Assembly: GCF_028858535.1 (NCBI RefSeq)
Contig: NZ_JAPMOU010000004.1
Coordinates: 149,473-213,472, forward strand
DNA from: Spartinivicinus poritis
GTDB lineage: Bacteria; Pseudomonadota; Gammaproteobacteria; Pseudomonadales; Zooshikellaceae
DNA: 64,000 nt
Direction: 5' to 3'
The notes beneath the pieces are model-generated. The model had not been told where the DNA came from and ran no database searches. It saw only the letters and a program-made list of their open reading frames with translations. The position numbers were made by a program, and so were the translations under genes. The stretch's first letter is position 1; every line of letters begins with the position of its first letter. Shown in pieces: positions 24,302 through 38,277 of the stretch.

Positions 24302-24955
24302 ATGACAACACAACTGCCAACGTCTATCACCAGCCAAATTGACCACATTTGTAGTCAGTCTCTGATAATGCCTGTTATTACAATTAATTCTGCTGAACAG
24401 GCATTACCTTTAGCAGAGGCATTATTAGCAGGCGGTATCAATGTATTAGAAATCACCTTACGTTCTGAATATGGCTTAACTGCCATTGCTGAGCTAAGAA
24501 AAAAACTACCAGAAGCCTGGATTGGAGCAGGCACAGTCACCAATCGCGAGCTATTAAAACAAGCGCAAGAGGCAGGCGCACAATTTATAGTAACGCCAGG
24601 CAGCACTGATGATTTATTAGCAGCCGGCGTAACAGCTAATATCCCACTATTACCAGGTATTGCTACTGGCTCCGAATTAATGATGGGGCTGGAAAAAGGC
24701 TATCAACGGTTCAAATTCTTCCCTGCCGCCATAAACGGAGGAACAGCAGCACTAAAAGCATTTTCAGGCCCATTTGGCCAGGTAAAATTCTGCCCAACCG
24801 GCGGAATCAATTTAGACAATGCCGCTGAGTACTTAGCCTTAAATAATGTGATCTGTATAGGCGGTAGCTGGGTAGTATCTAAAGACGCCATCGAAAATAG
24901 CGATTGGAAAAAAATCACTACTATAACCAAAGAAAGTATTGAGCAGTTGGCTTAA
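24302..24955 (+). CDS. eda: KDPG / KHG aldolase
   Basis: 217 aa. Typical Eda fold motifs (PVITIN...LEITLRS; the Schiff-base Lys region GQVKFCPTGGI). Confidence 0.9.
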   Translation: MTTQLPTSITSQIDHICSQSLIMPVITINSAEQALPLAEALLAGGINVLEITLRSEYGLTAIAELRKKLPEAWIGAGTVTNRELLKQAQEAGAQFIVTPGSTDDLLAAGVTANIPLLPGIATGSELMMGLEKGYQRFKFFPAAINGGTAALKAFSGPFGQVKFCPTGGINLDNAAEYLALNNVICIGGSWVVSKDAIENSDWKKITTITKESIEQLA

Positions 24956-25203
24956 TATACCCAATGCGAAGGGTTTTTAGGGCTAGCCTACAGAGGTGAG
25001 GCTAGCAATAATAGCATTAACTGATAAAAGAGCGTTATCGGCAAGCCATCAAGTGACGAGTTCCAGTAGCACTTTTTATATCAATTAAAGTTGCTACCGC
25101 AAGTCTTACAGTAGTAGACTTGCCCCCATGAGCCTATATTAATAGGTGACTGGGGTGAGGAATGAAGATAACAAAACCTAAAAATGATTCGCGACGGGTA
25201 TAA
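24956..25203 (+). repeat. MITE-like structured repeat, copy 1 (full length)
   Basis: Begins TATACCCAATGCGAAGGGTTTTTAGGGCTAGCCTACAG immediately after the eda stop. About 90% identical over ~205 bp to the inverted copy at 34301-34504. Contains the hairpin GCTAGCCT...AGGCTAGC. Confidence 0.8.
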
Positions 25204-25630
25204 TACAGCTAGTGAGGCACTTACAATAGTGTTTACTAAAGGGAGTAATGACTCCCTTTACATTTGAGCATGATATTACTTTTCTACCCCACTAAACATC
25301 GTTGTTTTTTTGCCTTTAATTACTAATGACCAAGCATTTTTTACGCCCGACCCAGTGTAATTATTTTTTTCTGTATCTTTAAACCAATAATACAGTGGCA
25401 AACCATCATAAGTTAACTGTAATCAATTACAACTTAACAACAATACAAAAATAACACCAAAACAATGTTTGATGAGCATACCCCCCCATAAAAGCTCTTG
25501 TTGACTTATATCAATCATTGCTTTTTATTATAATCAAAAGATTACTTTAGAGCTGCCATTACTCTAACTGTCAAGTAAAATAAGCACACGACAATGATCA
25601 ATAACCAACCAATTTTTAAAGGAGTAACCT

Positions 25631-25744
25631 ATGTTAGCTCGGATGGCATTGGCTATTATTATATGGGCATTAACTATTACCGCCATCAACTTACAAGCAG
25701 CTGAAGTTAACTGTTTCCACACCGAGCAAACATGTAATAATTAA
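25631..25744 (+). CDS. candidate small ORF (37 aa, hydrophobic, two Cys) with strong SD
   Basis: AAAGGAGT sits 6 nt before the ATG. Peptide MLARMALAIIIWALTITAINLQAAEVNCFHTEQTCNN. Lies in a 1.2-kb AT-rich non-coding leader upstream of the GspE-like gene. Not in the supplied ORF track (too short). Confidence 0.25.
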   Translation: MLARMALAIIIWALTITAINLQAAEVNCFHTEQTCNN

Positions 25745-26390
25745 CAGCAAGGAAAGATAAATAAGGATCTATAAAAAAAGGGACAATCACCAATATCATT
25801 TAATTCTAGTAATTCCTCGTAGCTGCTCATTTAAATGACTACGAGGACTTTTATATATAGTTCTTATAGTTTGCTAAAGCTTACTCCACTTCTTAATAAT
25901 AGCTTTCTAGCCTTATATAAAAAACAAGATAATGCAAGTCTATATAACCCCTTACATAATGCAGGGCAAACATACGATGTAAGTTGATTTAACACAACAA
26001 TAATATTATTAACGATTGTTTTATTATGCTAACTTTCAGCGCTTGTGAATAATAACCAACATGCGAGCGAATTAGCATTTTCAGGCATATCTAATGATTG
26101 TTTACCCCTGAAGTCAGTCACTGCTACTATAAAAATTTTGGATACTATAATAAGGATGTAACTCACTAGTTATTTTTTACTTTCAAAAATATAGGCGCAC
26201 TATATTAATTAGAAATAATTTTGCAATTAATATAATAAACAATTATATAACAATATTTTTACCTGCTTATGTATGATTACCAAAAAAATTTGCTAGAATT
26301 ATAAAGCGCTGTTGAAGAAATTGATATCACCTATGATCAACTATTTAACCAGCTTACCTTTACAACAATTTTTAGGTTAAGGTTAAGCTT

Positions 26391-28160
26391 ATGCCTGGCC
26401 ATAATACCACTAACTTAAGTGTTCAACCTCTTCCCGAACCTATCAAGTCTTCCAGCCTTTTACTTAAAAGGCTGGAAGCTGCGAGTACTCCGGTATCTTA
26501 TCGCCTGGATATTTTACTTATTGTATTCGGTTTTCTGTCACAAGAAGCAAGACATGAAAATATTAAATATTTAAATAAACTGAACGCTGACTCAGACATT
26601 GGCCACTACTTAATAAGTAAAAATATTATAACAGAAAGAGAGTTTCAGCGTGTTTTAGCTTATAAATTAGGTATGCCTTTTGTGTCACTTATAGATTTAG
26701 AATTTGACCTAAATATTATAAATCTTTTACCTGAAGAAGTCGCTAGAGACCATACTGTATTGCCAGTATTAGATCTTGGAGAAAAACTAGTCATAGCAAT
26801 GACGTTGCCACTAAAAAGCCAAACTATAAAATATTTAAGTTTTTTAACCAATTTTGTTATTGAGCCTGTAATTGCAGAGAGAAAAGATATTGAGTTCGCA
26901 ATAGCAAGACTATACGGGACCAGTAGTGAACTTGAAGCATTAGAAGAGTTTAAAAGCAACTACCATGAAGGAAACAAGCTAACTAGCAAAGACAACCTAT
27001 TACTTGGCCAAAAAAAGCCTATTGTAAAACTTGTTCATAATATGATTCTTGATGCTATTGGTAGCAAGGCCTCCGACATACATTTGAGACCTTGTGAAAA
27101 CGGGATAGATTTATTATTTAGAATTGATGGTAGCTTAATTAAAATACGAACATTTACTAAAGGGCTACTAGCCCCCATCATAAGCAGGTTAAAAGTCATG
27201 TCAGGAATGGACCTTGCTGCACACCATTTACCACAGGATGGACAGGCTTATTTAAAAAAAGGTGATCGGCAAATTGACTTACGGTTTTCAGTTATACCTA
27301 CTATTTATGGAGAAAGCGCAGTTATAAGAATTCTTGATGCAAAGTATGGCATGAAGAATTTATCTGGTATTGGTTTCTCAGAAAAAGACTTAACCTTATT
27401 TACTAATTTATTACACCGATCAAATGGTATTATTCTAGTGACAGGACCTACTGGCTCCGGAAAATCAACAACCCTTTATGCCGCTTTACAAGAAATAAAA
27501 ATGCGTAATGTTAATGTTGTTACCGTAGAAGATCCGGTTGAATATCATATTGACGGTCTTGTACAAATACAAGTCAACCACTCGATTGGCTACACTTTTT
27601 CAAGGGCATTAAGGCATATTCTAAGACATGACCCTGATGTGCTTATGGTAGGTGAGATAAGAGATTTAGAGACAGCACAAATGGCTATTGAATGTAGCCT
27701 TACAGGACATATAGTACTCTCTACGTTACATACTAATAGTGCAGCAACAACTATAGCACGTTTACTAGAAATTGGTATTGATCCTTATCTTGTAAATACT
27801 TCCTTGTTAGGTGTTTTAGCCCAGCGGCTTGTTCGTTGTAACTGTAAACATTGCTTAGTGGAAGAAAAAGTAAGGGCTGGTGTTCACTCTTCTCTGGGTT
27901 TGAAAGATGAAGAAACTTTTTATCGAGGTAAAGGTTGCGACCACTGCCGTAACACAGGTTATTCAGGCCGGCATGCCGTTTATGAGTTACTGATTATGAG
28001 CAATGAAATTCGTCAAGCAACTATTAATGGTAGTGGTGCTGAGCTTATTAAAAATGCAGCTATAAAAGAAGGTATGACACCGCTCACACAACAAGCACTT
28101 AGCTTGGCTCGTAATAAACTAACATCGTTAGAAGAAGTATATCGAACCATTTTAGATTAA
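26391..28160 (+). CDS. GspE/PilB-family type II secretion / type IV pilus assembly ATPase, orphan
   Basis: 589 aa. N-terminal T2SSE_N-like domain. Walker A VTGPTGSGKSTT, Asp box, His box and the tetracysteine motif (C..C...C..C: CNCKHC...CDHCRNTG). No other secretion or pilus genes nearby. Confidence 0.85.
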   Translation: MPGHNTTNLSVQPLPEPIKSSSLLLKRLEAASTPVSYRLDILLIVFGFLSQEARHENIKYLNKLNADSDIGHYLISKNIITEREFQRVLAYKLGMPFVSLIDLEFDLNIINLLPEEVARDHTVLPVLDLGEKLVIAMTLPLKSQTIKYLSFLTNFVIEPVIAERKDIEFAIARLYGTSSELEALEEFKSNYHEGNKLTSKDNLLLGQKKPIVKLVHNMILDAIGSKASDIHLRPCENGIDLLFRIDGSLIKIRTFTKGLLAPIISRLKVMSGMDLAAHHLPQDGQAYLKKGDRQIDLRFSVIPTIYGESAVIRILDAKYGMKNLSGIGFSEKDLTLFTNLLHRSNGIILVTGPTGSGKSTTLYAALQEIKMRNVNVVTVEDPVEYHIDGLVQIQVNHSIGYTFSRALRHILRHDPDVLMVGEIRDLETAQMAIECSLTGHIVLSTLHTNSAATTIARLLEIGIDPYLVNTSLLGVLAQRLVRCNCKHCLVEEKVRAGVHSSLGLKDEETFYRGKGCDHCRNTGYSGRHAVYELLIMSNEIRQATINGSGAELIKNAAIKEGMTPLTQQALSLARNKLTSLEEVYRTILD

Positions 28161-28189
28161 AAAAAAACAAACTTGCTATCAATGGAGTA

Positions 28190-28447
28190 TTGACTATGCA
28201 TATCTCCTTAACGAAACCAGAGCTAGATAGAGCACTGATCAAAGCCACAGAAATGTGGGAAAAAAGTGATGATAGTGACTATTTAGCAAAATCGTTACTT
28301 TATCATAATCAGTTAGTGAAAAAGCTAGATGCTGTTTATAAGGCAGCTAAGCTATATTTACATTCAGGTAGTGGAGCAAAGGAGCATACAAAACTCATTA
28401 GAGCTATAGATATAGTAGAACAAATCGAGTCAATTAAAGAATGGTAA
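28190..28447 (+). CDS. small helical hypothetical protein cotranscribed with the GspE-like ATPase
   Basis: 85-aa ORF 29 nt downstream of the ATPase gene. GGAG lies 8 nt before the ATG. Followed by a hairpin terminator. Confidence 0.45.
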   Translation: MTMHISLTKPELDRALIKATEMWEKSDDSDYLAKSLLYHNQLVKKLDAVYKAAKLYLHSGSGAKEHTKLIRAIDIVEQIESIKEW

Positions 28448-28465
28448 AAACCATATCATAATTCA

Positions 28466-28495
28466 GGTAATAGTTTTTCAAACTATTACCTTTCC
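28466..28495 (+). terminator. hairpin terminator between convergent GspE-operon and rtcR
   Basis: GGTAATAGTTT-TTC-AAACTATTACC (11-bp perfect stem) followed by TTTCC. Confidence 0.6.
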
Positions 28496-28524
28496 AACGA
28501 AAACGGAGATAACTTTATAAACCA

Positions 28525-30147
28525 CTATGATCTAACCTGATTAAAGCTCAAACCAAACTTAGACAAATAAATCCGTAAACGATGACTATCATTATTAGAT
28601 GCTTTTTGCGTTCGAGAATAATTAAACAATTCCCTTCCTGCCGCCGATAACGACGATTGCTGCTGGCAAATAGAAATCACCTGCTGTAGTTGTAACTGAT
28701 CAAACAAATCAATTGAAGCTAATTGTTCTTCACTAAAATAATGTGCTAAGTCTACACCAAAATGATTAACTTTGGGCTGATCGGTTTGCCAGTGCTTGGA
28801 TAACCGTTCTACTTCTTCACTGACAATGATTTCATTAATTCGTCCTCCTTCTGCTAACGTTAACATCCTTTGTACGCTGGCATTTAAGTCACGAAAATTG
28901 CCTCGCCAACTGGCCTGTGAAGATGTAGCAAAAGCTAGGTATTGCTGCTTTGCCTGTTGATTAAAACTGGCTTTATGGGCTGTTTTTCGCTCATGCTCCT
29001 GTAGCTCATAATTCAAGTTTGGCTCAATATCTTCTTTTCGTTGAGCTAAACCAGGCAGCTGATAAGTCCATAAGTTGATACGAGCTAATAAGTCATCACG
29101 AAATACCCCTTCTTCAACTGCCTGATATAGATCTTTATTGGTGCCAGCTATTTGTTGAAAATCACTTTGGACAGGCTTATCACTACCTAATGGGTAGAAT
29201 GTTTTTTCCTCAATAGCATGTAGTAGCATAGCTTGTTCATCTAGCCCAAGCTCACCAATTTCATCAAGAAATAACAACCCTTGGTTTGCTGCTAATAATA
29301 AACCATCCCGCTTATTTTGAGCTCCAGTAAATGCCCCTTTAATATGACCAAATAATGCTGACATAGCATTATCACCTTTTAAGGTTGCACAGTTAACTGC
29401 AATAAAATCACCAGCAACCAAGCCTTTTTGTTGTTTTAGCTGATAAATTCGTTTTGCCAGCATTGATTTACCTGCTCCAGTTGGCCCAGTAATTAACATG
29501 GGTGCCGTACTCCGAACAGCGACTTTCTCGATCTGCTCGATCATTTGGTTAAACGCTTTATTTTTAGTTTGAATGCCACTTTTTAAGAAAGACTGGTCAT
29601 CTAAAGCTTCTTTTTGAAAACGCTGCGCTAAGGCATCATATTTAGATAAATCCAGATCAATAACGGAGTAAGTACCAATCGCATTACCTTCTTCGTCTTT
29701 TACTCCTGGAGAAGACTGCAATAAACGGGCAGGTATATAGTTAGCTTCACACAATAAAAACCAACAAATCTGCGCTACATGGGTCCCAGTGGTGATGTGC
29801 AAATAGTAGTCTTCCTTTTCAGGCTTAAACGGGTAAGACTGACAGAACTCCAATAGCACACTATAAACTTCTTCAAAATCCCAAGGGTCGATAAAGCGAA
29901 CTGAATGCAAATTGTAAGCTGTATGATTAGACACCTCCTGCACATCTTCACACACCTTAGTTGCCAAGTTTTTATCCCTTGGTTGATGCAGCAACTCTAA
30001 ACGATCTAGCTTAAGATCCTTTTGCTGAAAAATACTAACGGTTGGCCGCCAGCTACTCCAACGCTTAGTCCCTTTACCTCGACGATCCTTAGTCGTACCC
30101 AGCAAACCAATGGCAACCTTAGTTTTGTTTGTTTTTTCACTCGTCAC
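28525..30147 (-). CDS. rtcR: sigma-54-dependent transcriptional regulator RtcR (N-terminal CARF domain, AAA+ sigma-54 activator, C-terminal HTH)
   Basis: 540 aa. Collinear strong similarity to E. coli RtcR as recalled from memory, not searched (VAIGLLGTT, WSSWRPTVSIFQQ, DRLELLH, WDFEEVY, HITTGTHVAQICWFLL, MIEQIEKVA). Walker A LITGPTGAGKS. GAFTGA sigma-54 contact motif. Confidence 0.9.
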   Translation of the reverse strand: MTSEKTNKTKVAIGLLGTTKDRRGKGTKRWSSWRPTVSIFQQKDLKLDRLELLHQPRDKNLATKVCEDVQEVSNHTAYNLHSVRFIDPWDFEEVYSVLLEFCQSYPFKPEKEDYYLHITTGTHVAQICWFLLCEANYIPARLLQSSPGVKDEEGNAIGTYSVIDLDLSKYDALAQRFQKEALDDQSFLKSGIQTKNKAFNQMIEQIEKVAVRSTAPMLITGPTGAGKSMLAKRIYQLKQQKGLVAGDFIAVNCATLKGDNAMSALFGHIKGAFTGAQNKRDGLLLAANQGLLFLDEIGELGLDEQAMLLHAIEEKTFYPLGSDKPVQSDFQQIAGTNKDLYQAVEEGVFRDDLLARINLWTYQLPGLAQRKEDIEPNLNYELQEHERKTAHKASFNQQAKQQYLAFATSSQASWRGNFRDLNASVQRMLTLAEGGRINEIIVSEEVERLSKHWQTDQPKVNHFGVDLAHYFSEEQLASIDLFDQLQLQQVISICQQQSSLSAAGRELFNYSRTQKASNNDSHRLRIYLSKFGLSFNQVRS

Positions 30148-30366
30148 ACCAACCTCACCTTATTACATTGCATACAAATGCTGCTACTCGGCCCTACCAA
30201 TTAACCGCTAACATACATATTATTTATATAGATCAATATTATATCCATATAGATATTTCAACAACAAAACTTCAGCGACAGCAATTCATGCTGGCCTCTC
30301 AGGTGATTCTTGCTATACCTTGAATATCAAGGCCTCCAACACTTTTAACAAAGAAATTTTAAAAGT

Positions 30367-30382
30367 TGGCACGTTAATCGCC
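30367..30382 (+). promoter_or_regulatory. candidate sigma-54 (-24/-12) promoter divergent from rtcR
   Basis: TTGGCACGTTAATCGCC. It has an exact TGGCACG -24 element and GG-N10-GC spacing, with -12 TCGC (one mismatch to TTGC). Orientation reads rightward into the tRNA-like RNA region, mirroring the rtcR/rtcBA divergent arrangement. Confidence 0.4.
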
Positions 30383-30607
30383 TTATGATTACTGTGCAAA
30401 GCGGAATGCTTTAGCAGGTCTGGTTTTTTGCTTCAAACCAAAGCCAGCCTGGTAACTCTTGTTTCAAGTAAGTTGTACCAAAGCGTCCCAAGACACAGTG
30501 CCCTTTCTCGGCATGGATTCGTAAGAATCTTATTGGGTTTTTTATGATATGGCATACAACTGGGTTCGAGTCCCTAAAAACCACCATTCATACTGGCTTT
30601 TAACCAG

Positions 30608-30680
30608 TGCTTGATAGCTCATTTGGTAGAGCAGTTGCTTAGGGAGCAATTGGTAGAAGGTTCGATTCCTTCTCAAGCTG
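30608..30680 (+). tRNA. tRNA-like element / atypical tRNA (anticodon AGG, U1.U72 mismatch), possibly a Y-RNA-like tRNA mimic or pseudo-tRNA
   Basis: Folds into a full cloverleaf by hand. Acceptor is 6 bp plus a U.U pair. U8-A9 present. D-arm GCTC/ATTTGGTA/GAGC with G18G19. Anticodon arm GTTGC/TTAGGGA/GCAAT (U33, anticodon AGG, R37). 5-nt variable loop. T-arm GAAGG/TTCGATT/CCTTC. No encoded CCA. The body resembles tRNA-Lys but the anticodon loop is altered. AGG is not a normal bacterial anticodon. Confidence 0.5.
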
Positions 30681-30720
30681 TATAAATGTAAAAAGACTAC
30701 GCAAGTAGTCTGCAATGAAA

Positions 30721-30849
30721 TATACCCAAAGCGAAGGGTTTTTAGGTGAGGCTATCGAGTGATGAAGCCCCGTGAGCCTATAAATAATAGGTGATTGGGG
30801 TGAGTCACGATGATAACAAAGCCTAAAAGCGATTCGCGAAAGGTATAAA
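30721..30849 (+). repeat. MITE-like structured repeat, copy 2 (internally deleted, direct orientation relative to copy 1)
   Basis: TATACCCAAAGCGAAGGGTTTTTAGG ... GAGCCTATAAATAATAGGTGATTGGGGTGAG ... GATAACAAAGCCTAAAAGCGATTCGCGAAAGGTATAA matches both ends of copy 1. Confidence 0.75.
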
Positions 30850-31231
30850 AGAGGTTAGCGGTTGTTGCCGCTGTTTAGCTTAATTAAATAACAGCATTAA
30901 ATTTATCAAAACTTAAAGTGAATGCAGGAAGCAATTACTTAAGGAATGGTGACTTTAATGAGGTAGCTAAAGCTGTACTAGTAGTTACCAGTTATTTAAT
31001 TATTTGGTTCGTTATTGAATCATTCCTTACAGGGTTACATTCTGTGGATCAACCACATACGATGTACAAATGTAAGCGAACCATTCTTTAACCACCACTA
31101 TTCAAGTAACCGCCCCTAACTTCTTTAGTTATGATGAGTCGCTTTTTAGTAGTTAATCAACTACTGACCAGTACTCATCATGACTAATAAGTCCTATTTT
31201 TAAGGGCATTTAGATTTAATGGAGATGTATT

Positions 31232-32770
31232 GTGTTTAAGAAAATAGTTGTCGGGCAAAATGAGCGACTAATTGTTGTTAAAGATAAAAGATTAAGTAAA
31301 GTTCTATCGACAGGAGTACATTATCTGCCTATTTGGCAATATGATGATGTAGAATTGGTTAGTACTGAGTCAGTACGCTTCACTCATGACAGCCTAGAAC
31401 AGTGGCTAAAAGAGCCTGTATTTTTACAATATTTTGATAAACTAGAGTTAGGCCGATTTGAAGTTGGGTTAGTTTATAAACATGGTCAGCTTTGGCAGTT
31501 ATTAAACCCGGCGACTACCCACTATTTGTGGAAAAATAGTGATGATATTGAGGTGCGTACCATCAATACCGAAAATAGTTATTATCTTGAAGATGATCTA
31601 TTATGGCAATTAACAAACAAAGAGCAGTTTGTTATTAATGCTAATACCAGTAATGTTACTACCCATAAAGTTAATGCAGGATTCGTTGCTTTAATCTATG
31701 TGGACAGCCAACTTATCGATTTGCAAGGTGAAGGTGAGTTTGGAGTATGGCAGTATCAGCGCAAAATTGAAGTAGTCATGATGGATACCCGCAAAGGGTT
31801 AAAACTTGATTATATATTGCAGGAAAACTGGTTAGAAATTCCTGCTGTTGCAGAACAAATTGCGCTATTTAAAACTGAACCACAGCAAGTTGGGCTACTG
31901 TATGAAGTACAGCATGGCCAGCGTCGTTTTAATCAATTACTGCCACCAAATACTGAAATTGCTGTATGGCAACAGAATAAAGTGTGGGAGCTTGATCTGG
32001 TTGATATCAACAACGACTTTCGGGTAACCAAACCATTGCTAGATAGCTTACGTCAGTATTTAAGTGGCCAGTGGTTAACAACCTCTATCGACCAACAGCA
32101 TATCGGTTTGCTACTGCAAGATGGTCAATTGGTTAGCACCCTGAATACTGGGCTACACGCTTATTGGCCTTTTGGTCGCCAACTGGAAATAAAACAGTTT
32201 GATTTACGCTGGCAAACAGTGGAAGTCAGTGGACAAGAAATATTAACCAAAGATCGGGTTAGTGTGCGGGTCAACCTAAACGCCAACTATCGTATTTTAG
32301 ATGCGGTAACGACTTTTGAAAGCGTTAACAATGTTAATGAGTTTATTTACCGTACGTTACAGCTAGCATTACGAGAAGCCATAGGTACACGAAACTTAGA
32401 TGATTTGTTAATGGATAAAGAGCATGTAAATCAGCTATTGCTAAAGCAATCAGCGGAGCATTTATCATCTATTGGGATAGAGCTTGGTCAACTGGGAATA
32501 AAAGACATTATTTTACCTGGTGAGATGAAGGAAATTCTTAACCAGGTGGTTAATGCCCAAAAATCAGCAGAAGCTAACAGCATCAAGCGTCGGGAAGAAA
32601 CAGCTGCTACTCGTAGCCTGCAAAACACCGCCAAAGTTATGGAAGGCAACCCAACTTTGCTGCGCTTGAAAGAACTGGAGTCATTGGAGAAAGTAGCAGA
32701 AAAAATTGACCAATTAAATGTATATGGAGGATTAGAACAAGTAATGAATGGCTTAGTTAAGCTAAAGTAA
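31232..32770 (+). CDS. SPFH/Band 7 (stomatin/prohibitin-like) domain protein
   Basis: 512 aa. N-terminus VVGQNERLIVVKDKRL is typical of the SPFH beta-start. The C-terminal region carries an SPFH core and coiled-coil (ILPGEMKEILNQVVNAQKSAEA...). No NfeD partner adjacent. Confidence 0.75.
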   Translation: MFKKIVVGQNERLIVVKDKRLSKVLSTGVHYLPIWQYDDVELVSTESVRFTHDSLEQWLKEPVFLQYFDKLELGRFEVGLVYKHGQLWQLLNPATTHYLWKNSDDIEVRTINTENSYYLEDDLLWQLTNKEQFVINANTSNVTTHKVNAGFVALIYVDSQLIDLQGEGEFGVWQYQRKIEVVMMDTRKGLKLDYILQENWLEIPAVAEQIALFKTEPQQVGLLYEVQHGQRRFNQLLPPNTEIAVWQQNKVWELDLVDINNDFRVTKPLLDSLRQYLSGQWLTTSIDQQHIGLLLQDGQLVSTLNTGLHAYWPFGRQLEIKQFDLRWQTVEVSGQEILTKDRVSVRVNLNANYRILDAVTTFESVNNVNEFIYRTLQLALREAIGTRNLDDLLMDKEHVNQLLLKQSAEHLSSIGIELGQLGIKDIILPGEMKEILNQVVNAQKSAEANSIKRREETAATRSLQNTAKVMEGNPTLLRLKELESLEKVAEKIDQLNVYGGLEQVMNGLVKLK

Positions 32771-32806
32771 ACGTTGTGGTGCATATAGATGCACCACAAC
32801 GTTTTT
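32771..32806. terminator. bidirectional hairpin terminator between the convergent SPFH and 438-aa genes
   Basis: Perfect 14-bp stem ACGTTGTGGTGCAT-ATAG-ATGCACCACAACGT followed by TTTTT. An A-tract lies on the other side. Confidence 0.65.
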
Positions 32807-32832
32807 AATAAAAACAATTGATATTAAATAGG

Positions 32833-34149
32833 TTAATTACTTTCCCAATTGAATACTGTGCCGTCACTAAAATGAATCATCACTGTATTAGGCTTCACTA
32901 CTTTTTTGTTTAATAAATAATCTTTACTGCTAAAATTGGCGGTAATCGTGGAGCCATCACTAAAGGTTGTTTGTTGTACTTGTCGACTTTTAGTTAAGTC
33001 AAGAAATTTCACTAAAGCCTTATCCCAAAGTTTTTCATGAGCTATCTGAAATCCTTTCGCATAGTGTTTTAAAGCAGGCAACCGCTTTCGTAAGCTATTA
33101 CGACTAATATGCAACATTGGCGGTGTGTTATATAACATCGCGGTTAAATCACGTACCACTTTCACATCGGAAAATTTTAAACTGTCTGCCCCCCAATGGT
33201 AGCCATTAATAACAGCATCATGAAACACGGCCTGATATAACGGCAGTTTATACTCGGGCGCAAACAATAAATTTTTATAAAGCATTTTGACTTGAGCTGG
33301 CTTAAAGAAAACCTGCGGCTCGTCATTTGGCCACCAAGTACCAAGATAATATGGTGATTGTTTATTTTTACGCATGTCTGGATCACGCCAACCAAAACCT
33401 GTAGTTTGAATTCCATGAGCAAATACTATTGACGACGTATTAATTGCATTACCATCTTCAGAGCCTAATGGTAGTTGATATTGATCCACAAACCACTGCA
33501 AGCGATAATTAAATCCTTTTGCCATGGTAGACTGGGAGTGTAAACGTTTAGAATGGTAATCCTCATAAAGCATTCCAGTGGCATCAGCGTCCAAAAATAA
33601 ACTATTAAAACCACCATAGTGCATGATTTTAGCAGTACGTTGCTGATAGTAAGTTTGCATACAACTTGGATTGGTATATACTCCTTTTCCTTTATAGCCC
33701 ATTTTTTTATATCCATCTTTCTTAACAATGCCACAGTTTTCCCGTAACTGGCTAGGTATCTGAGCAGTCAGCCAATTATCATTTACCCCCATCGGTATTG
33801 CTGTATTATACGAATCATAGGTGCTTATTAAGTAGCCAGCCTGTTTTGCCGCTATGACAGCCTCTGGATGATAAAAAGCTGAGGTCCAACTGGGTGTCAG
33901 TAATAATAATTTATTCAATTTGGCTGTTTGAAAATCCTCTATGACAGGTTTGGATAATCCCTGTCCCCAATTGACTACTGGCTTTAAAAAAACTCCCAAT
34001 CTTGCTTTCACTATTTTTTTTCTTTTTTTTGCTACCAGGTACTGCTGATCAATAAAATCTCTTTTATCCGGATCAGAAGAGACTGGTAATACTTTTGTGA
34101 ACGCATGATTAAGCATTTCAATCACTTTACGCTGGTGATAGTGATTCAT
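32833..34149 (-). CDS. hypothetical protein (large, possibly carbohydrate-active/TIM-barrel-like)
   Basis: 438-aa ORF with good coding statistics. No confidently recognised motifs; the carbohydrate-enzyme idea is tentative. Confidence 0.55.
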   Translation of the reverse strand: MNHYHQRKVIEMLNHAFTKVLPVSSDPDKRDFIDQQYLVAKKRKKIVKARLGVFLKPVVNWGQGLSKPVIEDFQTAKLNKLLLLTPSWTSAFYHPEAVIAAKQAGYLISTYDSYNTAIPMGVNDNWLTAQIPSQLRENCGIVKKDGYKKMGYKGKGVYTNPSCMQTYYQQRTAKIMHYGGFNSLFLDADATGMLYEDYHSKRLHSQSTMAKGFNYRLQWFVDQYQLPLGSEDGNAINTSSIVFAHGIQTTGFGWRDPDMRKNKQSPYYLGTWWPNDEPQVFFKPAQVKMLYKNLLFAPEYKLPLYQAVFHDAVINGYHWGADSLKFSDVKVVRDLTAMLYNTPPMLHISRNSLRKRLPALKHYAKGFQIAHEKLWDKALVKFLDLTKSRQVQQTTFSDGSTITANFSSKDYLLNKKVVKPNTVMIHFSDGTVFNWESN

Positions 34150-34300
34150 CCATTGTGAATTTATACCCGTATCGAATCATTTTTAGGTTTTGTTATCTTC
34201 GTTCCTAATCACCAAGGATGGTGTGAATGCAGTTAATGCATTATGACATGGATGTCATGTATTAGGGCAATGCAGGAGTAGTTGCCTAGGAGCATTTAAC

Positions 34301-34504
34301 TGTCACCCCAATCACTTATTAATATAGGCTCATGGGGACAAGTCTACTACTGTAAGACTTGCGGTAGCGACTTTAATGGATATAAAAGTGCTACTGGAAC
34401 TCGTCACTTGATGGCTTACCAATAACGCTGTTTTATCAATTAATGCTATTATTGCTAGCCTCACTGCTGTAGGCTAGCCCTAAAAACCCTTCACATTGGG
34501 TATA
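34301..34504 (-). repeat. MITE-like structured repeat, copy 3 (inverted relative to copy 1)
   Basis: Its reverse complement begins TATACCCAATGTGAAGGGTTTTTAGGGCTAGCCTACAGCAGTGAGGCTAGC and stays ~90% identical to copy 1 through ...GGGGTGA. Confidence 0.8.
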
Positions 34505-34610
34505 TATAACGTTAAAAACACATAAATATTAAAGCAATCAATATCATAAAAAGCGTTTATAACAATTTTTTACCAGTTAGGCTTATGAAAATTATATAGC
34601 TCAGAACCTA

Positions 34611-34871
34611 TTACTGCCACTTGCACAGAGGCTGCTCATAGATAGTATATTTCTCACAGCTACTTTTAGTCCTAAATCCTCCACACCATTTTTTTAAATT
34701 AAAATCTTGCGTCTGGTAATTATTCTCTGAATTTTGTAAACAGCTTTGTGCTTTAACTTCAACATAACCTGGATATAAACTTAGCTCTGGTTTATCATAA
34801 CAATAATTCATGACTGATTCTTTATCATATGATCCAATAAATACAAATAAATTATATAATTCTTTTAACAT
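34611..34871 (-). CDS. small Cys-rich hypothetical ORF downstream of bla (overlaps its 3' end by 20 nt)
   Basis: 86-aa ORF with 6 Cys. No SD check possible. Could be spurious. Confidence 0.25.
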   Translation of the reverse strand: MLKELYNLFVFIGSYDKESVMNYCYDKPELSLYPGYVEVKAQSCLQNSENNYQTQDFNLKKWCGGFRTKSSCEKYTIYEQPLCKWQ

Positions 34872-35643
34872 GTAATGCTTCTTTTATAATCTGTTTTCTT
34901 AGTTTTCGTTGACTATCTTTCATTAGATCTATATTTATTGCAAAAAACCATGTTTGATTATCCTTCTCTAGGAAACCAACATACCAGCCTATGTCTATCC
35001 CTTTTCCATTTTTCATTACCCAACCTGTTTTTCCATATAGTTTATATGATGGATTACTTTCATTAAGCATAATCTTCTTAGTTTTTTTCTGATATTTTTT
35101 GTAGTATGGCAGTCTTTCAGAATATAATTTTTTTAGAAACTCAATTTGTTGATATGCATTGATTCGTAACTTTCCATCTAACCAAAACGTCGTTAAATTG
35201 CCTAACTCTCTATTACCATAGTTCATTTTTTTTAAGTGATACCGATACTGCAATCTCCCAACATCTTGAGCTACCTCTTGATAACACCATATACATGAAT
35301 TGGATAATGCAGACTGTAATGTATGATTTTGATTCCATATCTTCCATCCTTTATCTTTTCCATCCCATAAAAATACATGACCATCAGGATTTATAGCCCC
35401 CTCTGCAAGACCAATTAGTGTATTAGGGATTTTGAATGTTGATGCAGGTAAATAATTTTTTTTTGCTCTAGATTCATTATGTATGTACACTTTTTTTCCA
35501 TCAGTGGACGATATAACCAATGTACCATTTACATTATATTTATTGAAAATGCTTAATAATTGCTTATCCTCAACCCCATATGAAAAAACAGCCTGAATAA
35601 ATAAAAGCGAACCTAAAAATAGGTTTTTGATATGTATCTTCAT
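34852..35643 (-). CDS. blaOXA: class D (OXA-type) beta-lactamase
   Basis: 263 aa with a signal peptide. Class D motifs are present: STFK (PASTFKIPN), YGN (NYGNRELG), KTG (YGKTGW) and W.xG (IGWYVGF). Confidence 0.85.
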   Translation of the reverse strand: MKIHIKNLFLGSLLFIQAVFSYGVEDKQLLSIFNKYNVNGTLVISSTDGKKVYIHNESRAKKNYLPASTFKIPNTLIGLAEGAINPDGHVFLWDGKDKGWKIWNQNHTLQSALSNSCIWCYQEVAQDVGRLQYRYHLKKMNYGNRELGNLTTFWLDGKLRINAYQQIEFLKKLYSERLPYYKKYQKKTKKIMLNESNPSYKLYGKTGWVMKNGKGIDIGWYVGFLEKDNQTWFFAINIDLMKDSQRKLRKQIIKEALHVKRII

Positions 35644-36243
35644 GATTTTAGAAGCCTATTAATGTAAATTGAAAAAACTATTTTATATAAATAACTAAGA
35701 AACTTTGTACTTTTCTGATGATCAATTATGATAAAAAATGGCATTAAGTACCCATTTATTTAATCTTACCGAGCACCCTATTATTACACGCCTTGCCTCT
35801 CACGCTAGAATTTAAACAGTAAATTAGTATTGTATTTATTGTAATGGGTATTACACTCCAAAGGTAAAAGTCAATAAAATATTTACCTATTTACAAAGAA
35901 AAATATAGAGGGTAATCAACAAGAAAGAAGATTATTATTTAACTTGGCATTAATTATATTTACATTCTTAAAAGATGTTTAATTACACAATAAATTCTGA
36001 ACTTAATAGATATTTGTACTTATTGTGGTAGATATTCGTCCATCCAACGTACACTTTAAGTGTGAAGTTATTAAAGTGTACGCTATGACCTACTAAATCT
36101 TTAATTGAAGGGTTCGTTATTATTTTTCGTCTATATTGAGTTTAATTCTGAACAGTTGACTTGCTGGAGATAAAATAGTGATATTTCTTTATTTGATATA
36201 ATTTCTTGCTTTGGCTTTATTTTTACTGTTGCACAAAACAAAT

Positions 36244-36777
36244 TTAAAGATTGAATCCAGCTTTTATCAATGTATTTTTTTTGTGCTGGTTGATTTTTTT
36301 ATAACATGTATTTTTATCATTGCATGTCTTTCTTATATCAGTAATTGTTCCTCCCATCTGATATCCATCTTTTTCTGCATTGAATAACGTATAGCCTACA
36401 TGCACCTTAAACTGGCCATTTTTACATGGCTGAATCACTTTAGTAATTAGTGAGTTAGATTTATTATTAGGAGAATAATCTGCAACTTCGTTTAGTACTT
36501 TTTCTTTTATAATGTCTTCAAAGCTATTATATGTACGATTAGGAGAACCTATTAATGCAGCAATTTCACTTGATTCTATTCTCTTAGCAAAATCACTACG
36601 TTTTAATTTAACCTTATCAAGATCTAATTGCTTTTCTTTACAGGGAGAGCGTATAACACTTAATTCATAAGGCGTTAAATTATATACTTTAAAAGTATAA
36701 TTCTCAGGTGCAGCCTGAACTGTCAGTACTACCATTAAATTACTAATGATAGCTAGTTTAATTCTATACAACCACAT
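36244..36777 (-). CDS. secreted hypothetical protein
   Basis: 177 aa. Signal peptide ...LMVVLTVQAAP. Lys-rich and AT-rich gene in the low-GC insertion. Confidence 0.5.
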   Translation of the reverse strand: MWLYRIKLAIISNLMVVLTVQAAPENYTFKVYNLTPYELSVIRSPCKEKQLDLDKVKLKRSDFAKRIESSEIAALIGSPNRTYNSFEDIIKEKVLNEVADYSPNNKSNSLITKVIQPCKNGQFKVHVGYTLFNAEKDGYQMGGTITDIRKTCNDKNTCYKKINQHKKNTLIKAGFNL

Positions 36778-36947
36778 TATTAATTACTCAAATGCTGACT
36801 ACTTTGATATAACACTCAACAGCAGGCAGACATCTTCTAGTTCTATCAGATTACATTAAGCTGGTGAAGGATACAGATAAAGGCTCCTTTAAACATCATA
36901 GGTTACTGCCCCTATCAAGATTATTATTTTATGCCATAAATACTAAT

Positions 36948-37250
36948 CTAATTAGCATTACAAGGATATCGACTTACAAATGCTCCTTCAGGATTTTTAG
37001 TTTTTGCAAGATCGGCAACTGGATATTTTTCACACATTTTGGTAATTTTGCTACCAAGATTAAACTTATCTTCAATATGGTGTTCTTCCGACGCAATAAC
37101 CTGACCATCCTTATAAGCATAAAATGTGTAGATACCCTTTGGCAGACCACCAACTGCATTTCTTAACCATTGACTACTACAACCACTCAGCAAAATTAAA
37201 CCAACAAATAACAAGACCAATTTTTCTTTCATAACAAATCTTTTAGTCAT
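36948..37250 (-). CDS. small lipoprotein (hypothetical)
   Basis: Lipobox LLSGCSS after a hydrophobic segment. 100 aa. Confidence 0.5.
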   Translation of the reverse strand: MTKRFVMKEKLVLLFVGLILLSGCSSQWLRNAVGGLPKGIYTFYAYKDGQVIASEEHHIEDKFNLGSKITKMCEKYPVADLAKTKNPEGAFVSRYPCNAN

Positions 37251-37385
37251 ATAAATAATTGGAGATAAGTAAACTTATTATTTTCAAATAATATTAACAA
37301 AATGTCACGTGAATGTAACATTTTCAACAAATATAAGACAATTTAAGTATAAACACCTACTCTTTTTGAAGATATTGAGCGAATA

Positions 37386-37691
37386 TCAATCAGATCTGTT
37401 TTCATTTATTAGCATTGAGTAAATGCAATTCAATGTTAGACTTTCAACTACCTCTAACTCAAAACTACCAGTGTTTAAACAGTTTTTTGCAACAGTTATG
37501 ACTGAGTCAATCATAGACAATGCCCATTCTATAGGGATATCTTCTCTTAGTTTTCCTTTAAGCTTCAAAGCAATTAACTCACTTTTAAGCCTGTTTGTAG
37601 CATTAAATTTTTCACCTTGAATTAATTGTATTACTAAATACTCTATATTACATTTTTTTCTTTCAAATACAGTTGATGAGTTTTCGTTCAA
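37386..37691 (-). CDS. hypothetical protein
   Basis: 101-aa ORF. Preceded (5') by a copy of a ~40-bp motif that is also found 5' of bla. Confidence 0.4.
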   Translation of the reverse strand: MNENSSTVFERKKCNIEYLVIQLIQGEKFNATNRLKSELIALKLKGKLREDIPIEWALSMIDSVITVAKNCLNTGSFELEVVESLTLNCIYSMLINENRSD

Positions 37692-37970
37692 TTACATTTA
37701 CCTTATTATTAGAATGCCTATTACCTAACAAGCAAGTATATCCAACAGAATTGCTTTGGCAGGCAATCCTACACCAAGGCATTATAATAACAATGGTTTT
37801 ATGAAGATCAATTATGACAAAAAATGACATTAAGATAATTTTAAGTGCTCACTTTTCAACAGTGATTCCAGCATTCCAACACAACAACACCTTCTCAACA
37901 CCAATATTTACACCAATTTATTAACGACACCTGAACTATTGTAGTTACACTGCTCCTTTCCCAGACACGC

Positions 37971-38213
37971 TTGCACAGTTGGCTGTATTATCTAACGTTT
38001 ATTTTCTTAACTGCCTTTGTATTTTTAAATATGATGGTAGATACGATCTTAGATGTAATGAGCCAAGAGCAAGAAAAATTTCGCGCTGAATCTCATGGTG
38101 AAACAGAAGAAGGTGGTACACCTGCCAGTCGGGCTCAGATTGAAAAGCTAGAAAAAGAGTTAACTGAAATAAAAGCGCTATTAAAACAACAAACATCTAT
38201 CAAAGAACAATAG
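37971..38213 (+). CDS. hypothetical membrane-anchored coiled-coil peptide
   Basis: 80 aa. N-terminal hydrophobic helix then a charged coiled-coil. Weak support. Confidence 0.3.
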   Translation: MHSWLYYLTFIFLTAFVFLNMMVDTILDVMSQEQEKFRAESHGETEEGGTPASRAQIEKLEKELTEIKALLKQQTSIKEQ

Positions 38214-38277
38214 CTACTTTTAGTTAGCCCAGCGAAATTTATCTTCTGAGCTAACACAAACTGTAGGACACCTTTAA

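Follow-up and report, generated by a model that had tools for sequence, protein, structure and literature searches.

An orphan GspE/PilB-family ATPase of Spartinivicinus poritis, the small helical protein encoded next to it and the mosaic DNA upstream

What is the role of a secretion or pilus-assembly ATPase whose gene stands apart from all pilus and secretion genes, behind a long AT-rich region containing a small, strongly initiated reading frame? The question is raised by a 64-kb stretch of DNA of Spartinivicinus poritis (the window), which was analysed in comparison with S. marinus and S. ruber. A preliminary description of the locus had considered a regulatory leader peptide or a small-protein/ATPase module. 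The picture that we favour, with about even confidence, is not one module behind a long leader but four unrelated units that are neighbours in a low-GC, variable part of the chromosome (Table 1). In this picture the ATPase would be a motor that serves, in trans, filament machinery with genes elsewhere, and the 83-aa product of the next gene would be its accessory. Orphan paralogues of PilB/GspE are widespread, and hardly any have been characterised. A clade whose members consistently lack linkage to platform genes is a well-defined subject for the question of what motors of this kind do. Nothing presented here overturns current understanding.

Table 1 Features of the locus (positions in the window; promoters and terminators are predictions from sequence)
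Feature	Position	Strand	Remarks
MITE-like dispersed repeat copy	24955-25203	+	Directly 3' of eda; 94 % inverted repeat with the copy at 34161-34505
Terminator-like hairpin AAAGGGAGT-aatg-ACTCCCTTT	25238-25259	+	Fold z = -2.5
Upstream region of mini-ORF	25501-25534	+	Palindrome TTGACttatATCAA 25501-25514, TATAAT 25529-25534; conserved in all three species
Mini-ORF (37 codons) with SD AAAGGAGT	SD 25618-25625, ORF 25631-25744	+	N-terminus signal-peptide/TM-like, tail polar and variable
Predicted terminator hairpin of mini-ORF unit	25814-25847	+	9-bp stem, then CUUUUAUAU; fold z = -2.4
GDSL-lipase gene scar	25876-26032	-	Remnant of last 14 codons (25876-25917) joined to former upstream region (25919-26032)
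Candidate promoter of ATPase operon, TTTGCTAGAAT	26289-26299	+	Extended -10-like; about 90 nt before ATG
GspE/PilB-family ATPase, 589 aa	26391-28160	+	Pfam match, below NCBIfam cut-offs; dN/dS 0.07-0.13
ATPase, degenerate MshEN four-helix segment	aa 38-92, nt 26502-26666		
ATPase, T2SSE_N	aa 93-179, nt 26667-26927		
ATPase core	aa 208-585, nt 27012-28145		
83-aa gene with SD GGAG	28184-28447 (SD 28184-28187, ATG and ORF 28196-28447)	+	Predicted three-helix-bundle protein; unnamed family of about 90-aa proteins
Strong hairpin, 12-bp stem	28465-28491		Between convergent 83-aa gene and rtcR; -14.4 kcal/mol, z = -4.9, 0/200 shuffles as stable
rtcR	28525-30147	-	Context only; convergent with ATPase operon, drives separate divergent unit; Pfam and NCBIfam
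Sigma-54-like promoter, RtcR side	30366-30381		Directed away from rtcR, towards non-coding RNA and SPFH gene

The ATPase and its clade

The 589-aa protein is a member of the GspE/PulE (T2SSE, PF00437) superfamily. It was matched by the Pfam models T2SSE (2.4e-120, 402 bits; cut-off 24.9) and MshEN/T2SSE_N (2.6e-16), and all four motifs could be located, namely Walker A (GPTGSGKS at residue 352), the Asp box (VEDPVE at 379), Walker B (DPDVLMVGEIRD at 414) and the His box (TGHIVLSTLH at 438). The tetracysteine motif consists of CKHC at 485 and CDHC at 516; C485, C488, C516 and C519 do not vary across the clade alignment, and a tetracysteine zinc site of this kind is characteristic of the PilB/GspE subgroup. 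With these matches and with all motifs intact, the initial assignment as a secretion or pilus-assembly ATPase with a T2SSE_N domain, Walker A and B and a tetracysteine motif was confirmed. Since the catalytic motifs are intact, the ATPase is predicted to be active. Its length is identical in the three Spartinivicinus species, and the low dN/dS (Table 1), over dS values of up to 1.7, indicates that it is under purifying selection. PilF, PilB and GspE motors are its closest matches among solved structures.

The protein scored below the cut-offs of the three more specific models: 513 bits with the PilB model TIGR02538 (cut-off 675.65; ten clade members 512-534), 498.8 bits with the GspE model TIGR02533 (cut-off 630.25; the window contains no gsp genes) and 424.6 bits with the TfpB model NF053534 (cut-off 850; 430-460 for the ten clade members tested). 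By model score, the clade is about equally far from PilB and GspE and further from TfpB. As its TfpB score is lower than its PilB and GspE scores, the ATPase is not a TfpB orthologue by that test, although the NCBIfam model for TfpB may be narrow and limited to Acinetobacter.

No platform, secretin or pilin genes were found in the 64-kb window by Pfam searches of ORFs of at least 110 aa, a six-frame search for T2SSF and a search for prepilin motifs, which upholds the orphan status proposed for the ATPase. Excepted from the Pfam scan were three ORFs identified only via their S. marinus counterparts and two that overlap larger ORFs. Orphan status extends to the whole clade, which is monophyletic in a neighbour-joining tree of the ATPase core and shows 60 % core identity internally and at most 48 % to platform-linked members. 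A T2SSF gene was present in the flanks of none of seven independent clade lineages as against 57 of 79 other family members. These 79 controls are near-randomly sampled GspE-family members from a search of contigs with the clade alignment, which had one clade member only (L009) among the matches listed. The clade is habitually encoded away from platform, pilin or secretin genes. A position next to pilC or other pilus genes, by which PilB is recognised, is not found for the S. poritis ATPase; in all seven lineages the gene is an orphan, and in this it agrees with the gene of TfpB, a paralogue of PilB that lacks synteny with pilC. Apart from P-loop noise, neither the ATPase nor the 83-aa protein was matched to a defence system by PADLOC.

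The ATPase resembles the c-di-GMP-binding ATPases MshE and PA14_29490 in length and in domain order, with a four-helix segment followed by T2SSE_N and the core (PMC4624772, PMC5013675), and its residues 37-170 align to the N-domain of MshE (PDB 5HTL; E = 6e-7). The c-di-GMP-binding motif of MshEN consists of two tandem 24-residue sequences, RLGxx(L/V/I)(L/V/I)xxG(L/V/I)(L/V/I)xxxxLxxxLxxQ, with a 5-residue separation, 53 residues in all (PMC5013675). Unlike those of MshE and PA14_29490, both 24-residue motifs of the S. poritis protein are degenerate. In motif I, RLDILLIVFGFLSQEARHENIKYL, D replaces G, R replaces L and L replaces Q; in motif II, DIGHYLISKNIITEREFQRVLAYK, D replaces R, N replaces the turn G and K replaces Q; the spacer measures 7 residues, not 5. 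The replacements include both terminal glutamines, the arginine of motif II, the RLG glycine of motif I and the turn glycine of motif II. Among the 120 best-matching homologues of the ATPase, just one has even a single canonical motif. The proposed comparison with MshEN-type c-di-GMP binders yielded a match to the domain but a degenerate motif, and on sequence grounds a function as a c-di-GMP receptor is not supported. In addition, the genes of MshE and PA14_29490 are located in pilus or T2SS operons, whereas that of the S. poritis ATPase is not.

The downstream gene and the probable operon

A small partner gene does follow the ATPase gene, as had been noted, but the length of 85 aa and the 29-nt gap given for it were not retained. 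The most likely start is the ATG at 28196, which yields a protein of 83 aa at a distance of 35 nt from the ATPase gene, with GGAG 8 nt upstream. Products of 83 aa are also recorded for the orthologues in S. ruber and S. marinus; S. ruber has an 88-aa gene call as well. The orthologues are 84-92 % identical, and a dN/dS of 0.05-0.09 indicates strong purifying selection. The helical nature ascribed to the protein is in line with its structure model (pLDDT 91.6), a predicted three-helix bundle; fold searches returned generic helical-bundle matches only.

With a full-length profile, 88 cluster representatives of the family were matched at E ≤ 1e-3 and 11 at E ≤ 1e-10. The family consensus is ...ELxxAL..A..MRE.G.D...LAK.LL.L..R...LE.V..AA..YLHSG....EH..L.RA..., and the S. 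poritis protein has a conserved Glu/His cluster (E9, H56, E63 and H64). No Pfam or NCBIfam model matches the family. CBS pairs are found fused to some members. These fusions and the Spartinivicinus operon are the only hints as to the function of this family of small, well-folded proteins. The S. marinus orthologue is labelled HEPN in UniRef. This assignment was rejected, as there is no Pfam or NCBIfam match and the Rx4-6H motif is lacking: neither R12 nor R69 is accompanied by a histidine at +5 to +7.

The 35-nt spacer between the two genes has no structure, and the small gene is followed by a strong hairpin that is probably a bidirectional terminator. Because of the unstructured spacer and the hairpin after the small gene, the ATPase and 83-aa genes very probably constitute a bicistronic operon. 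A wider small-protein/ATPase module, for which a genome co-occurrence analysis had been suggested, is not supported: in the contexts examined for both families, the two never occur together outside Spartinivicinus. The family of the 83-aa protein is encountered as solitary genes in unrelated contexts, so the adjacency to the ATPase in one genus may be fortuitous.

Possible roles of the ATPase

Most likely, the ATPase would assemble as a Zn-stabilised hexamer and work in trans on type IV filament machinery from elsewhere in the genome, in the manner of TfpB in Acinetobacter baylyi. TfpB is a PilB paralogue that is not syntenic with pilC and without which T4P are not extended; in P. fluorescens A506 the T4P machinery is accompanied by a tfpB homologue only (PMC8213720). 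As a second extension motor, TfpB shows that an orphan ATPase can work in trans on a pilus machine (PMC8213720). Both TfpB and the S. poritis ATPase belong to the PilB/GspE family, have a length of about 580 aa, are encoded apart from pilC and pilus genes and represent a lineage distinct from canonical PilB and GspE. They differ in the score on the TfpB model, as do all ten clade members tested, a comparison made by model score and not by tree. The paper describing S. ruber gives no information on pili or secretion.

Since the MshEN-like four-helix segment lacks the c-di-GMP consensus, it probably serves as a docking or regulatory surface, not as a c-di-GMP sensor. The 83-aa protein would be a lineage-specific accessory that was taken over from an independent family and serves the motor as adaptor or regulator. 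Precedents could be CpiA of A. baylyi and Aqs1 of a phage, both small and alpha-helical, which bind PilB and inhibit it (PMC8213720). The 83-aa protein is likewise small, all-helical and lineage-restricted, an action on a PilB-type motor being hypothetical in its case, but it shares no sequence similarity with either of them. Moreover, cpiA is paired with a repressor gene and is not co-transcribed with the motor gene, while the 83-aa gene is part of the predicted motor operon.

PA5210/PA14_68820 of P. aeruginosa is an orphan ATPase. We know of no function for it, and none was found in the literature on this protein. It is annotated as a probable secretion-pathway ATPase of about 575 aa, which is as long as MshE, and it is not among the ATPases reported to bind c-di-GMP (PMC4624772). 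Judging from the gene numbering in Table S2 of PMC8213720, it may be the TfpB homologue of P. aeruginosa. The 120 best matches of the S. poritis ATPase include no P. aeruginosa proteins.

An unlikely alternative is a module made up of the ATPase and the 83-aa protein that is complete in itself and independent of a platform, for instance a signalling or remodelling ATPase operating via the small helical protein, without a role in pili or secretion. The lack of platform neighbours throughout the clade would agree with this, as would the genes for HDOD and cNMP-binding signalling proteins downstream of clade ATPases in other lineages, the CBS sensor pairs fused to relatives of the 83-aa protein and the tight adjacency of the pair in three species (dS up to 1.3). 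PilB of M. xanthus is reported to be a signalling protein in EPS regulation (PMC5544727). The restriction of the pairing to one genus argues against such a module, and so do the retention by the ATPase of every filament-motor feature, the Zn site included, and the fact that TfpB, the one characterised orphan paralogue, acts on a pilus machine. More doubtful is the bolder proposal that the orphan clade constitutes a class of motors with a new function, other than driving filaments, and that the Spartinivicinus pair is a new two-component ATPase module with a partner recruited from an uncharacterised, CBS-associated family, in which the Glu/His cluster could be a ligand or metal site.

The orphan position in a stretch of variable DNA of low GC content, where MITEs, an IS element and a gene-deletion scar are also found, together with the degenerate MshEN motif, might suggest a functionless or decaying relic of a lost pilus or secretion operon; this is very improbable in view of the selection on the ATPase, its intact catalytic motifs and constant length, and the orphan state common to a whole conserved clade.

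Equally hard to defend is the idea that the ATPase operon is a functional part of the adjacent RtcR stress-response locus. The location next to rtcR that had been pointed out is correct and is seen in all three Spartinivicinus species. The rtcR product scored 802 bits with NCBIfam NF038308 (cut-off 650), and the Pfam models RtcR and Sigma54_activat were both matched, as befits an RtcR with a CARF-type RtcR domain and a sigma-54 AAA+ domain. However, the two units are convergent with the strong hairpin in between, and the sigma-54-like promoter on the RtcR side points the other way. A search upstream of the ATPase gene found no sigma-54-type promoter, so nothing ties the ATPase to RtcR but adjacency. 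RtcR was seen in none of the six ATPase contexts outside the genus (L009 is not annotated). For the RtcR-linked RNA, RNAalifold detected no covariation among the three sequences, which are near-identical and make this analysis uninformative; the RNA had no match in two metagenome pattern scans.

The region upstream of the ATPase gene

The preliminary description had taken the DNA before the ATPase gene for an unusually long, very AT-rich and non-coding leader. The gap (24956-26390) is indeed long: with 1435 nt it is the second longest of 44 gaps, four of which exceed 1 kb. Its AT-richness, on the other hand, is not exceptional: with a GC content of 0.327 (0.308 for 25204-26390) as against a mean of 0.338 for window gaps of at least 200 nt, it is typical of the local intergenic DNA. 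Nor is it empty: the supposed 1.2-kb leader is a mosaic in which a MITE-like repeat is followed by a small gene with signals of its own, a GDSL-lipase gene scar and a conserved promoter-like motif. A simple scan for sigma-70 promoters and terminators did no better on this DNA than on shuffles.

The mini-ORF has the textbook SD that had been claimed for it, with 6 nt between the GGAG and the ATG. Together with its SD it is kept in S. marinus (81 % amino acid identity) and S. ruber (63 %), so the proviso that it might be conserved in no homologous locus does not apply, and its dN/dS is 0.11-0.19 over the first 24 codons. Conservation in all three species indicates that the mini-ORF is a real gene. 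Of the hydrophobic two-Cys 37-mer that had been described, the hydrophobic core stands but the cysteines are not conserved, S. marinus having one and S. ruber none. A homologue search with the 43-aa S. ruber version retrieved only itself and no relative outside the genus, and the product is suggested to be a genus-restricted small membrane or secreted peptide. Its positively charged start gives way to a hydrophobic core some 15 residues long; next come a site resembling A-x-A, with AQA↓A in S. ruber and LQA↓A in S. poritis, and a short polar tail. This n-h-c organisation, visible in the sequence, is like that of Sec-signal-peptide pro-peptides, and the charged start and core also recall type I toxin-like membrane peptides; the strong SD and own terminator are further points of likeness to such small hydrophobic proteins. 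Unlike type I toxins, the mini-ORF has no identified antisense RNA or antitoxin, no antisense element having been found, and it has no family match. The palindrome upstream may resemble FNR/CRP-type boxes.

That the mini-ORF is a leader peptide, or the AT-rich region a regulatory leader (attenuator, sRNA or H-NS-silenced) controlling the ATPase, is scarcely credible, even though the mini-ORF is strongly initiated, conserved and located upstream of the ATPase on the same strand in AT-rich DNA. Leader peptides and attenuators lie directly upstream in the same transcription unit and their linkage is conserved. The mini-ORF, by contrast, has its own conserved upstream region and a terminator hairpin, the stem of which is kept in S. 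marinus via a compensatory change (C-G to U-A on both sides). Its end is 646 nt away from the ATPase start, and the spacing differs again in S. marinus. Mini-ORF and ATPase are separated in S. ruber by a GDSL-lipase gene of 363 aa on the opposite strand, because of which the former is not considered a leader peptide. Among the 300 nt that precede the ATPase gene, the TTTGCTAGAAT block alone is strongly conserved in all three species, and it is a candidate promoter. An Rfam E-value scan of 24900-31300 matched a tRNA-like element only, and the supposed leader has no match to an Rfam family. Synteny has already largely refuted the leader reading.

The lipase gene that is still present in S. ruber has been lost in S. 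poritis. The scar DNA matches S. ruber locus L001 at 8528-8562 and 9603-9716, which flank the lipase CDS; the remnant itself gave a weak tblastn match (E = 0.29). What looks like a long, AT-rich "leader" containing a strongly initiated mini-ORF can turn out to be composed of a mobile repeat, a small gene that stands by itself and the scar of a deletion. The MITE-like repeat occurs in four copies in the window, with about 0.1 expected by chance, and the copy at 30718-30850 is missing from the same site in S. marinus. The block at 25199-25280, which holds the first terminator-like hairpin, is 90 % identical to S. marinus locus L002 9124-9205, and in that species an IS3-family transposase gene lies between eda and the mini-ORF.

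Orphan state and lineage of the ATPase

A homologue search with the window ATPase returned a GspE/PulE family protein from Spartinivicinus poritis at 100 % identity. The hallmarks of a secretion or pilus-assembly ATPase that the preliminary description had listed could all be located: it matches the Pfam T2SSE and T2SSE_N/MshEN domains and carries Walker A, Asp box, Walker B and His box motifs as well as the tetracysteine site (CxxC...CxxC). Its best solved structural relatives are the PilF, PilB and GspE motors. The gene was also rightly seen as an orphan, as no platform (GspF/PilC-type), pilin, or secretin gene was found in the 64-kb window using Pfam scans, a T2SSF profile, and a prepilin-motif search. 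The Pfam scans covered ORFs of at least 110 aa, with two ORFs overlapping larger ones left out and three ORFs identified only via their S. marinus counterparts; E. coli HofC and GspF served to build the T2SSF profile, which was run on all six frames.

Features in and around the ATPase operon, in window coordinates
Feature	Position	Strand or remark
MITE-like dispersed repeat, copy 1 of 4	9808	
hexR	left end of local gene order	minus
zwf, pgl, eda	after hexR	eda end at 24955
Intergenic gap	between eda and ATPase	1435 nt
MITE-like repeat, copy 2	24955-25203	leftmost in gap
Terminator-like hairpin	25238-25259	
Conserved block with mini-ORF	after the hairpin	
Palindrome	25501-25514	in three species
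Mini-ORF	25631-25744	37 codons
Hairpin	25814-25847	3' of mini-ORF
Deletion scar	25876-26032	
ATPase-proximal region	last part of gap	
Promoter-like block	26289-26299	
ATPase	26391-28160	
Small gene (83-aa protein)	28196-28447	
rtcR	28525-30147	minus
Non-coding stretch with tRNA-like element	between rtcR and SPFH/Band_7 gene	1.1 kb
Sigma-54-like promoter	30366-30381	divergent from rtcR
T-arm-like element, then ACCACCA	30562-30590	
tRNA-like gene	30608-30680	
Hairpin	30693-30711	
MITE-like repeat, copy 3	30718-30850	
SPFH/Band_7 gene	31232-32770	
GH129 glycosidase gene	beyond SPFH/Band_7 gene	minus
MITE-like repeat, copy 4	34161-34505	
glk-edd, gap, pyk	farther along than GH129 gene	

The nearest relatives of the ATPase outside the genus are 47-56 % identical to it. 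Six independent contexts of such relatives were examined (L004; L005 and L006, one lineage; L007 and L008, one lineage; L009; L089; L090), and none of these contains a platform or pilin gene. The downstream neighbours in the five gene-called contexts are mutually unrelated (HDOD, MotY, TonB-dependent receptor, SEC-C, and cNMP-binding proteins). A T2SSF gene was present within the fetched flank in 57 of 79 control loci, an essentially random sample of other GspE-family loci, versus none of the seven clade lineages; by our own arithmetic, with 0.72 as background rate, seven misses have a probability of ~1e-4. Neighbour joining on the ATPase core placed all sampled clade members and the L009 protein in a single group, with all 79 controls, E. 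coli GspE and E. coli HofB outside it. The core is ~60 % identical inside the clade versus at most 48 % to platform-linked members. The S. poritis ATPase and ten clade members scored ~500-540 bits with the NCBIfam PilB and GspE models and 425-460 bits with TfpB, in each case below the curated cut-off. Because of the tree grouping, the lack of platform linkage, and the sub-cut-off scores, the clade constitutes a distinct, habitually orphan lineage. The ATPase itself is an orphan GspE/PilB-family member of an already-known kind; new, if minor, is that it belongs to a coherent clade whose members consistently lack a linked platform gene.

Many members of the clade are 700-890 aa long and have extra N-terminal domains (PF22478 and PF14332 in precomputed Pfam assignments), among them the database homologues P0055, P0059, P0069-P0071, P0074, and P0079-P0081. 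This suggests that different input domains have been fused to the clade motor in different lineages.

The 83-aa partner and the proposed mode of action

The small partner proposed earlier is real, but a product of 83 aa starting at ATG 28196, which is preceded by GGAG at 8 nt, is more likely than one of 85 aa. Products of 83 aa are on record for S. ruber and S. marinus, the former also having an 88-aa gene call. With 84-92 % identity among the three species and a dN/dS of 0.05-0.09, the protein is as constrained as the ATPase. The two genes, which look co-transcribed within the genus, have a structure-free spacer of 35 nt between them and a strong hairpin (z = -4.9) downstream of the second.

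A word-based search with the 83-aa protein gave matches in the genus only, while a HMMER profile search retrieved a family of ~90-aa proteins with 88 cluster representatives, for which there is no Pfam or NCBIfam model. The AlphaFold model, based on a 46-sequence alignment, shows a three-helix bundle with high confidence (pLDDT 91.6), and fold searches with it returned generic bundles only. The UniRef label "HEPN" was unsupported. In at least 90 % of the 46 sequences in the alignment, E9, D26, G58, and H64 are conserved; H56 is part of the family consensus. E9, H56, and H64 would be located at one end of the modelled bundle and may form a ligand or metal site. Relatives also include tandem duplicates and proteins in which the small domain is fused to the C-terminus of a CBS pair (homologues P0138, P0151, P0210, P0124, and P0147).

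Co-occurrence of ATPase and partner was not seen beyond the genus. In four contexts of 83-aa relatives (L091; L092; L095-L097, one lineage; L098) these were solitary genes among unrelated neighbours, none of them an ATPase gene, and the family profile had no match in any non-genus ATPase locus. The pairing is therefore specific to the Spartinivicinus lineage. That the operon partner in this genus comes from an unnamed small-protein family is a second new, minor point.

That the ATPase is a relic is argued against by purifying selection (dN/dS 0.07-0.13) and intact motifs. A role as MshEN-type c-di-GMP binder, raised in the preliminary description, is also unlikely. The c-di-GMP site of MshE consists of two 24-residue motifs with five residues between them (PMC5013675). 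ATPase residues 38-92 align with this segment, but motif I differs from that of MshE by G to D, L to R, and Q to L changes, motif II by R to D, turn G to N, and Q to K, and the spacer has seven residues instead of five. These changes at key positions make c-di-GMP binding unlikely. Of the 120 closest homologues, 5 retain the motif II glutamine and 12 the motif I arginine; a single protein has even one canonical motif. The Pfam "MshEN" match comprises residues 93-179, the T2SSE_N part, outside the nucleotide-binding helices.

The best precedent for the window ATPase is TfpB of Acinetobacter baylyi, a PilB paralogue that is non-syntenic with pilC and as distant from PilB as GspE or MshE is; pilus extension requires TfpB, which acts on machinery encoded elsewhere (PMC8213720). 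P. fluorescens A506 has a tfpB homologue only, and CpiA, a small helical protein, is an inhibitor that binds PilB (PMC8213720). By analogy with TfpB, the ATPase would most likely be a filament motor acting in trans, with a lineage-specific helical accessory. An assignment as TfpB proper was unsupported by the NCBIfam test. P. aeruginosa PA5210/PA14_68820 carries the annotation "probable secretion-pathway ATPase", matches MshE in length and is not among the ATPases reported as c-di-GMP binders (PMC4624772); judged by gene numbers, the TfpB homologue in Table S2 of PMC8213720 may be this protein.

The upstream gap and the mini-ORF

The region upstream of the ATPase had been described as an unusually long, AT-rich leader. 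It is long, the second longest of 44 gaps, but not unique, as four gaps exceed 1 kb, and its GC content (0.327) matches that of other intergenic DNA (mean 0.338). Comparison of the window with the loci of S. ruber (L001) and S. marinus (L002, L003) indicates that the "leader" is a mosaic. In S. ruber, an opposite-strand 363-aa GDSL-lipase gene separates the mini-ORF from the ATPase; in S. poritis the stretches flanking this CDS are directly joined, a clean loss of the gene. The S. marinus locus has eda separated from the mini-ORF by an IS3-family transposase gene. The only well-conserved block in the 300 nt immediately upstream of the ATPase, TTTGCTAGAAT, resembles an extended -10 promoter. 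A promoter search revealed no sigma-54 promoter upstream of the ATPase, and no Rfam family matched this region.

The mini-ORF and its SD exist as described, and both are kept, the SD being identical, in all three species. Its first 24 codons, encoding the hydrophobic N-terminus, are constrained (dN/dS 0.11-0.19 at dS up to ~1), but the polar tail is variable and neither of the two cysteines in the peptide is conserved across species. The palindrome TTGACttatATCAA, 117 nt upstream of its start, and a TATAAT, also 5' of the mini-ORF, are conserved. TTGACttatATCAA resembles the FNR/CRP-family consensus (TTGAT-N4-ATCAA); its spacing to the TATAAT does not match that of a standard class II promoter. 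Pairing in the hairpin 3' of the mini-ORF is kept in S. marinus via a change on both sides. No relatives were found outside the genus by homologue search. Given its changing neighbours, its own flanking signals, and its genus-only distribution, the mini-ORF is an independent, genus-restricted small gene and not the regulatory leader peptide suggested earlier, which its own hairpin and the intervening lipase gene in S. ruber contradict. Leader, mini-ORF, ATPase, and partner do not form the single unit that had been proposed.

The variable segment and the rtcR-side locus

As glk-edd, gap, and pyk lie farther on, the ATPase is within a segment of ~13 kb (24956-38277) that interrupts an Entner-Doudoroff/glycolysis supercluster, separating these genes from hexR-zwf-pgl-eda. 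This variable, low-GC segment (~0.29-0.40 versus 0.42-0.47 on both sides) is what had been called "the insertion". Its gene content varies among Spartinivicinus species; the cargo comprises the ATPase operon, rtcR, the SPFH and GH129 glycosidase genes, and a gene for a 263-aa protein with a PBP-transpeptidase (beta-lactamase-like) domain, with several intergenic stretches of 0.6-1.5 kb and copies of a MITE-like repeat. The repeat, of which four copies were observed in the window versus ~0.1 expected by chance, ends in imperfect terminal inverted repeats (TATACC...GCGAAGGGTTTTTAGG / CCTAAAA...GGTATA). Copies 2 and 4 form a 94 % inverted repeat bracketing 25204-34160. Copy 3, found in S. poritis as well as S. 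ruber, is missing from the same site in S. marinus, an insertion polymorphism among species.

Next to the ATPase operon, and more striking, is an rtc-type locus (30148-32770; 14833-17748 in L001 and 13756-16246 in L002). RtcB and RtcA were not found among the scanned ORFs of the 64 kb. The sigma-54-like promoter TTGGCACgttaaTCGC is followed by ~340 nt that are nearly invariant in the three species, the dS of the neighbouring genes being 0.6-1.3. Inside this stretch are the T-arm-like GGGTTCGAGTCCC with ACCACCA after it, the tRNA-like gene, and a hairpin. The tRNA-like gene is a full cloverleaf (Rfam tRNA, 59 bits) with anticodon AGG, a U1-U72 mismatch, and no encoded CCA; Rfam Y-RNA gave no match at this locus. 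A conserved 380-nt leader and the SPFH/Band_7 gene come after the near-invariant stretch. Judged from these elements, the locus looks like a unit of a structured RNA and an SPFH gene under RtcR control. The rtc locus of P. aeruginosa also contains an SPFH gene, PaFlo8 (PMC13086221).
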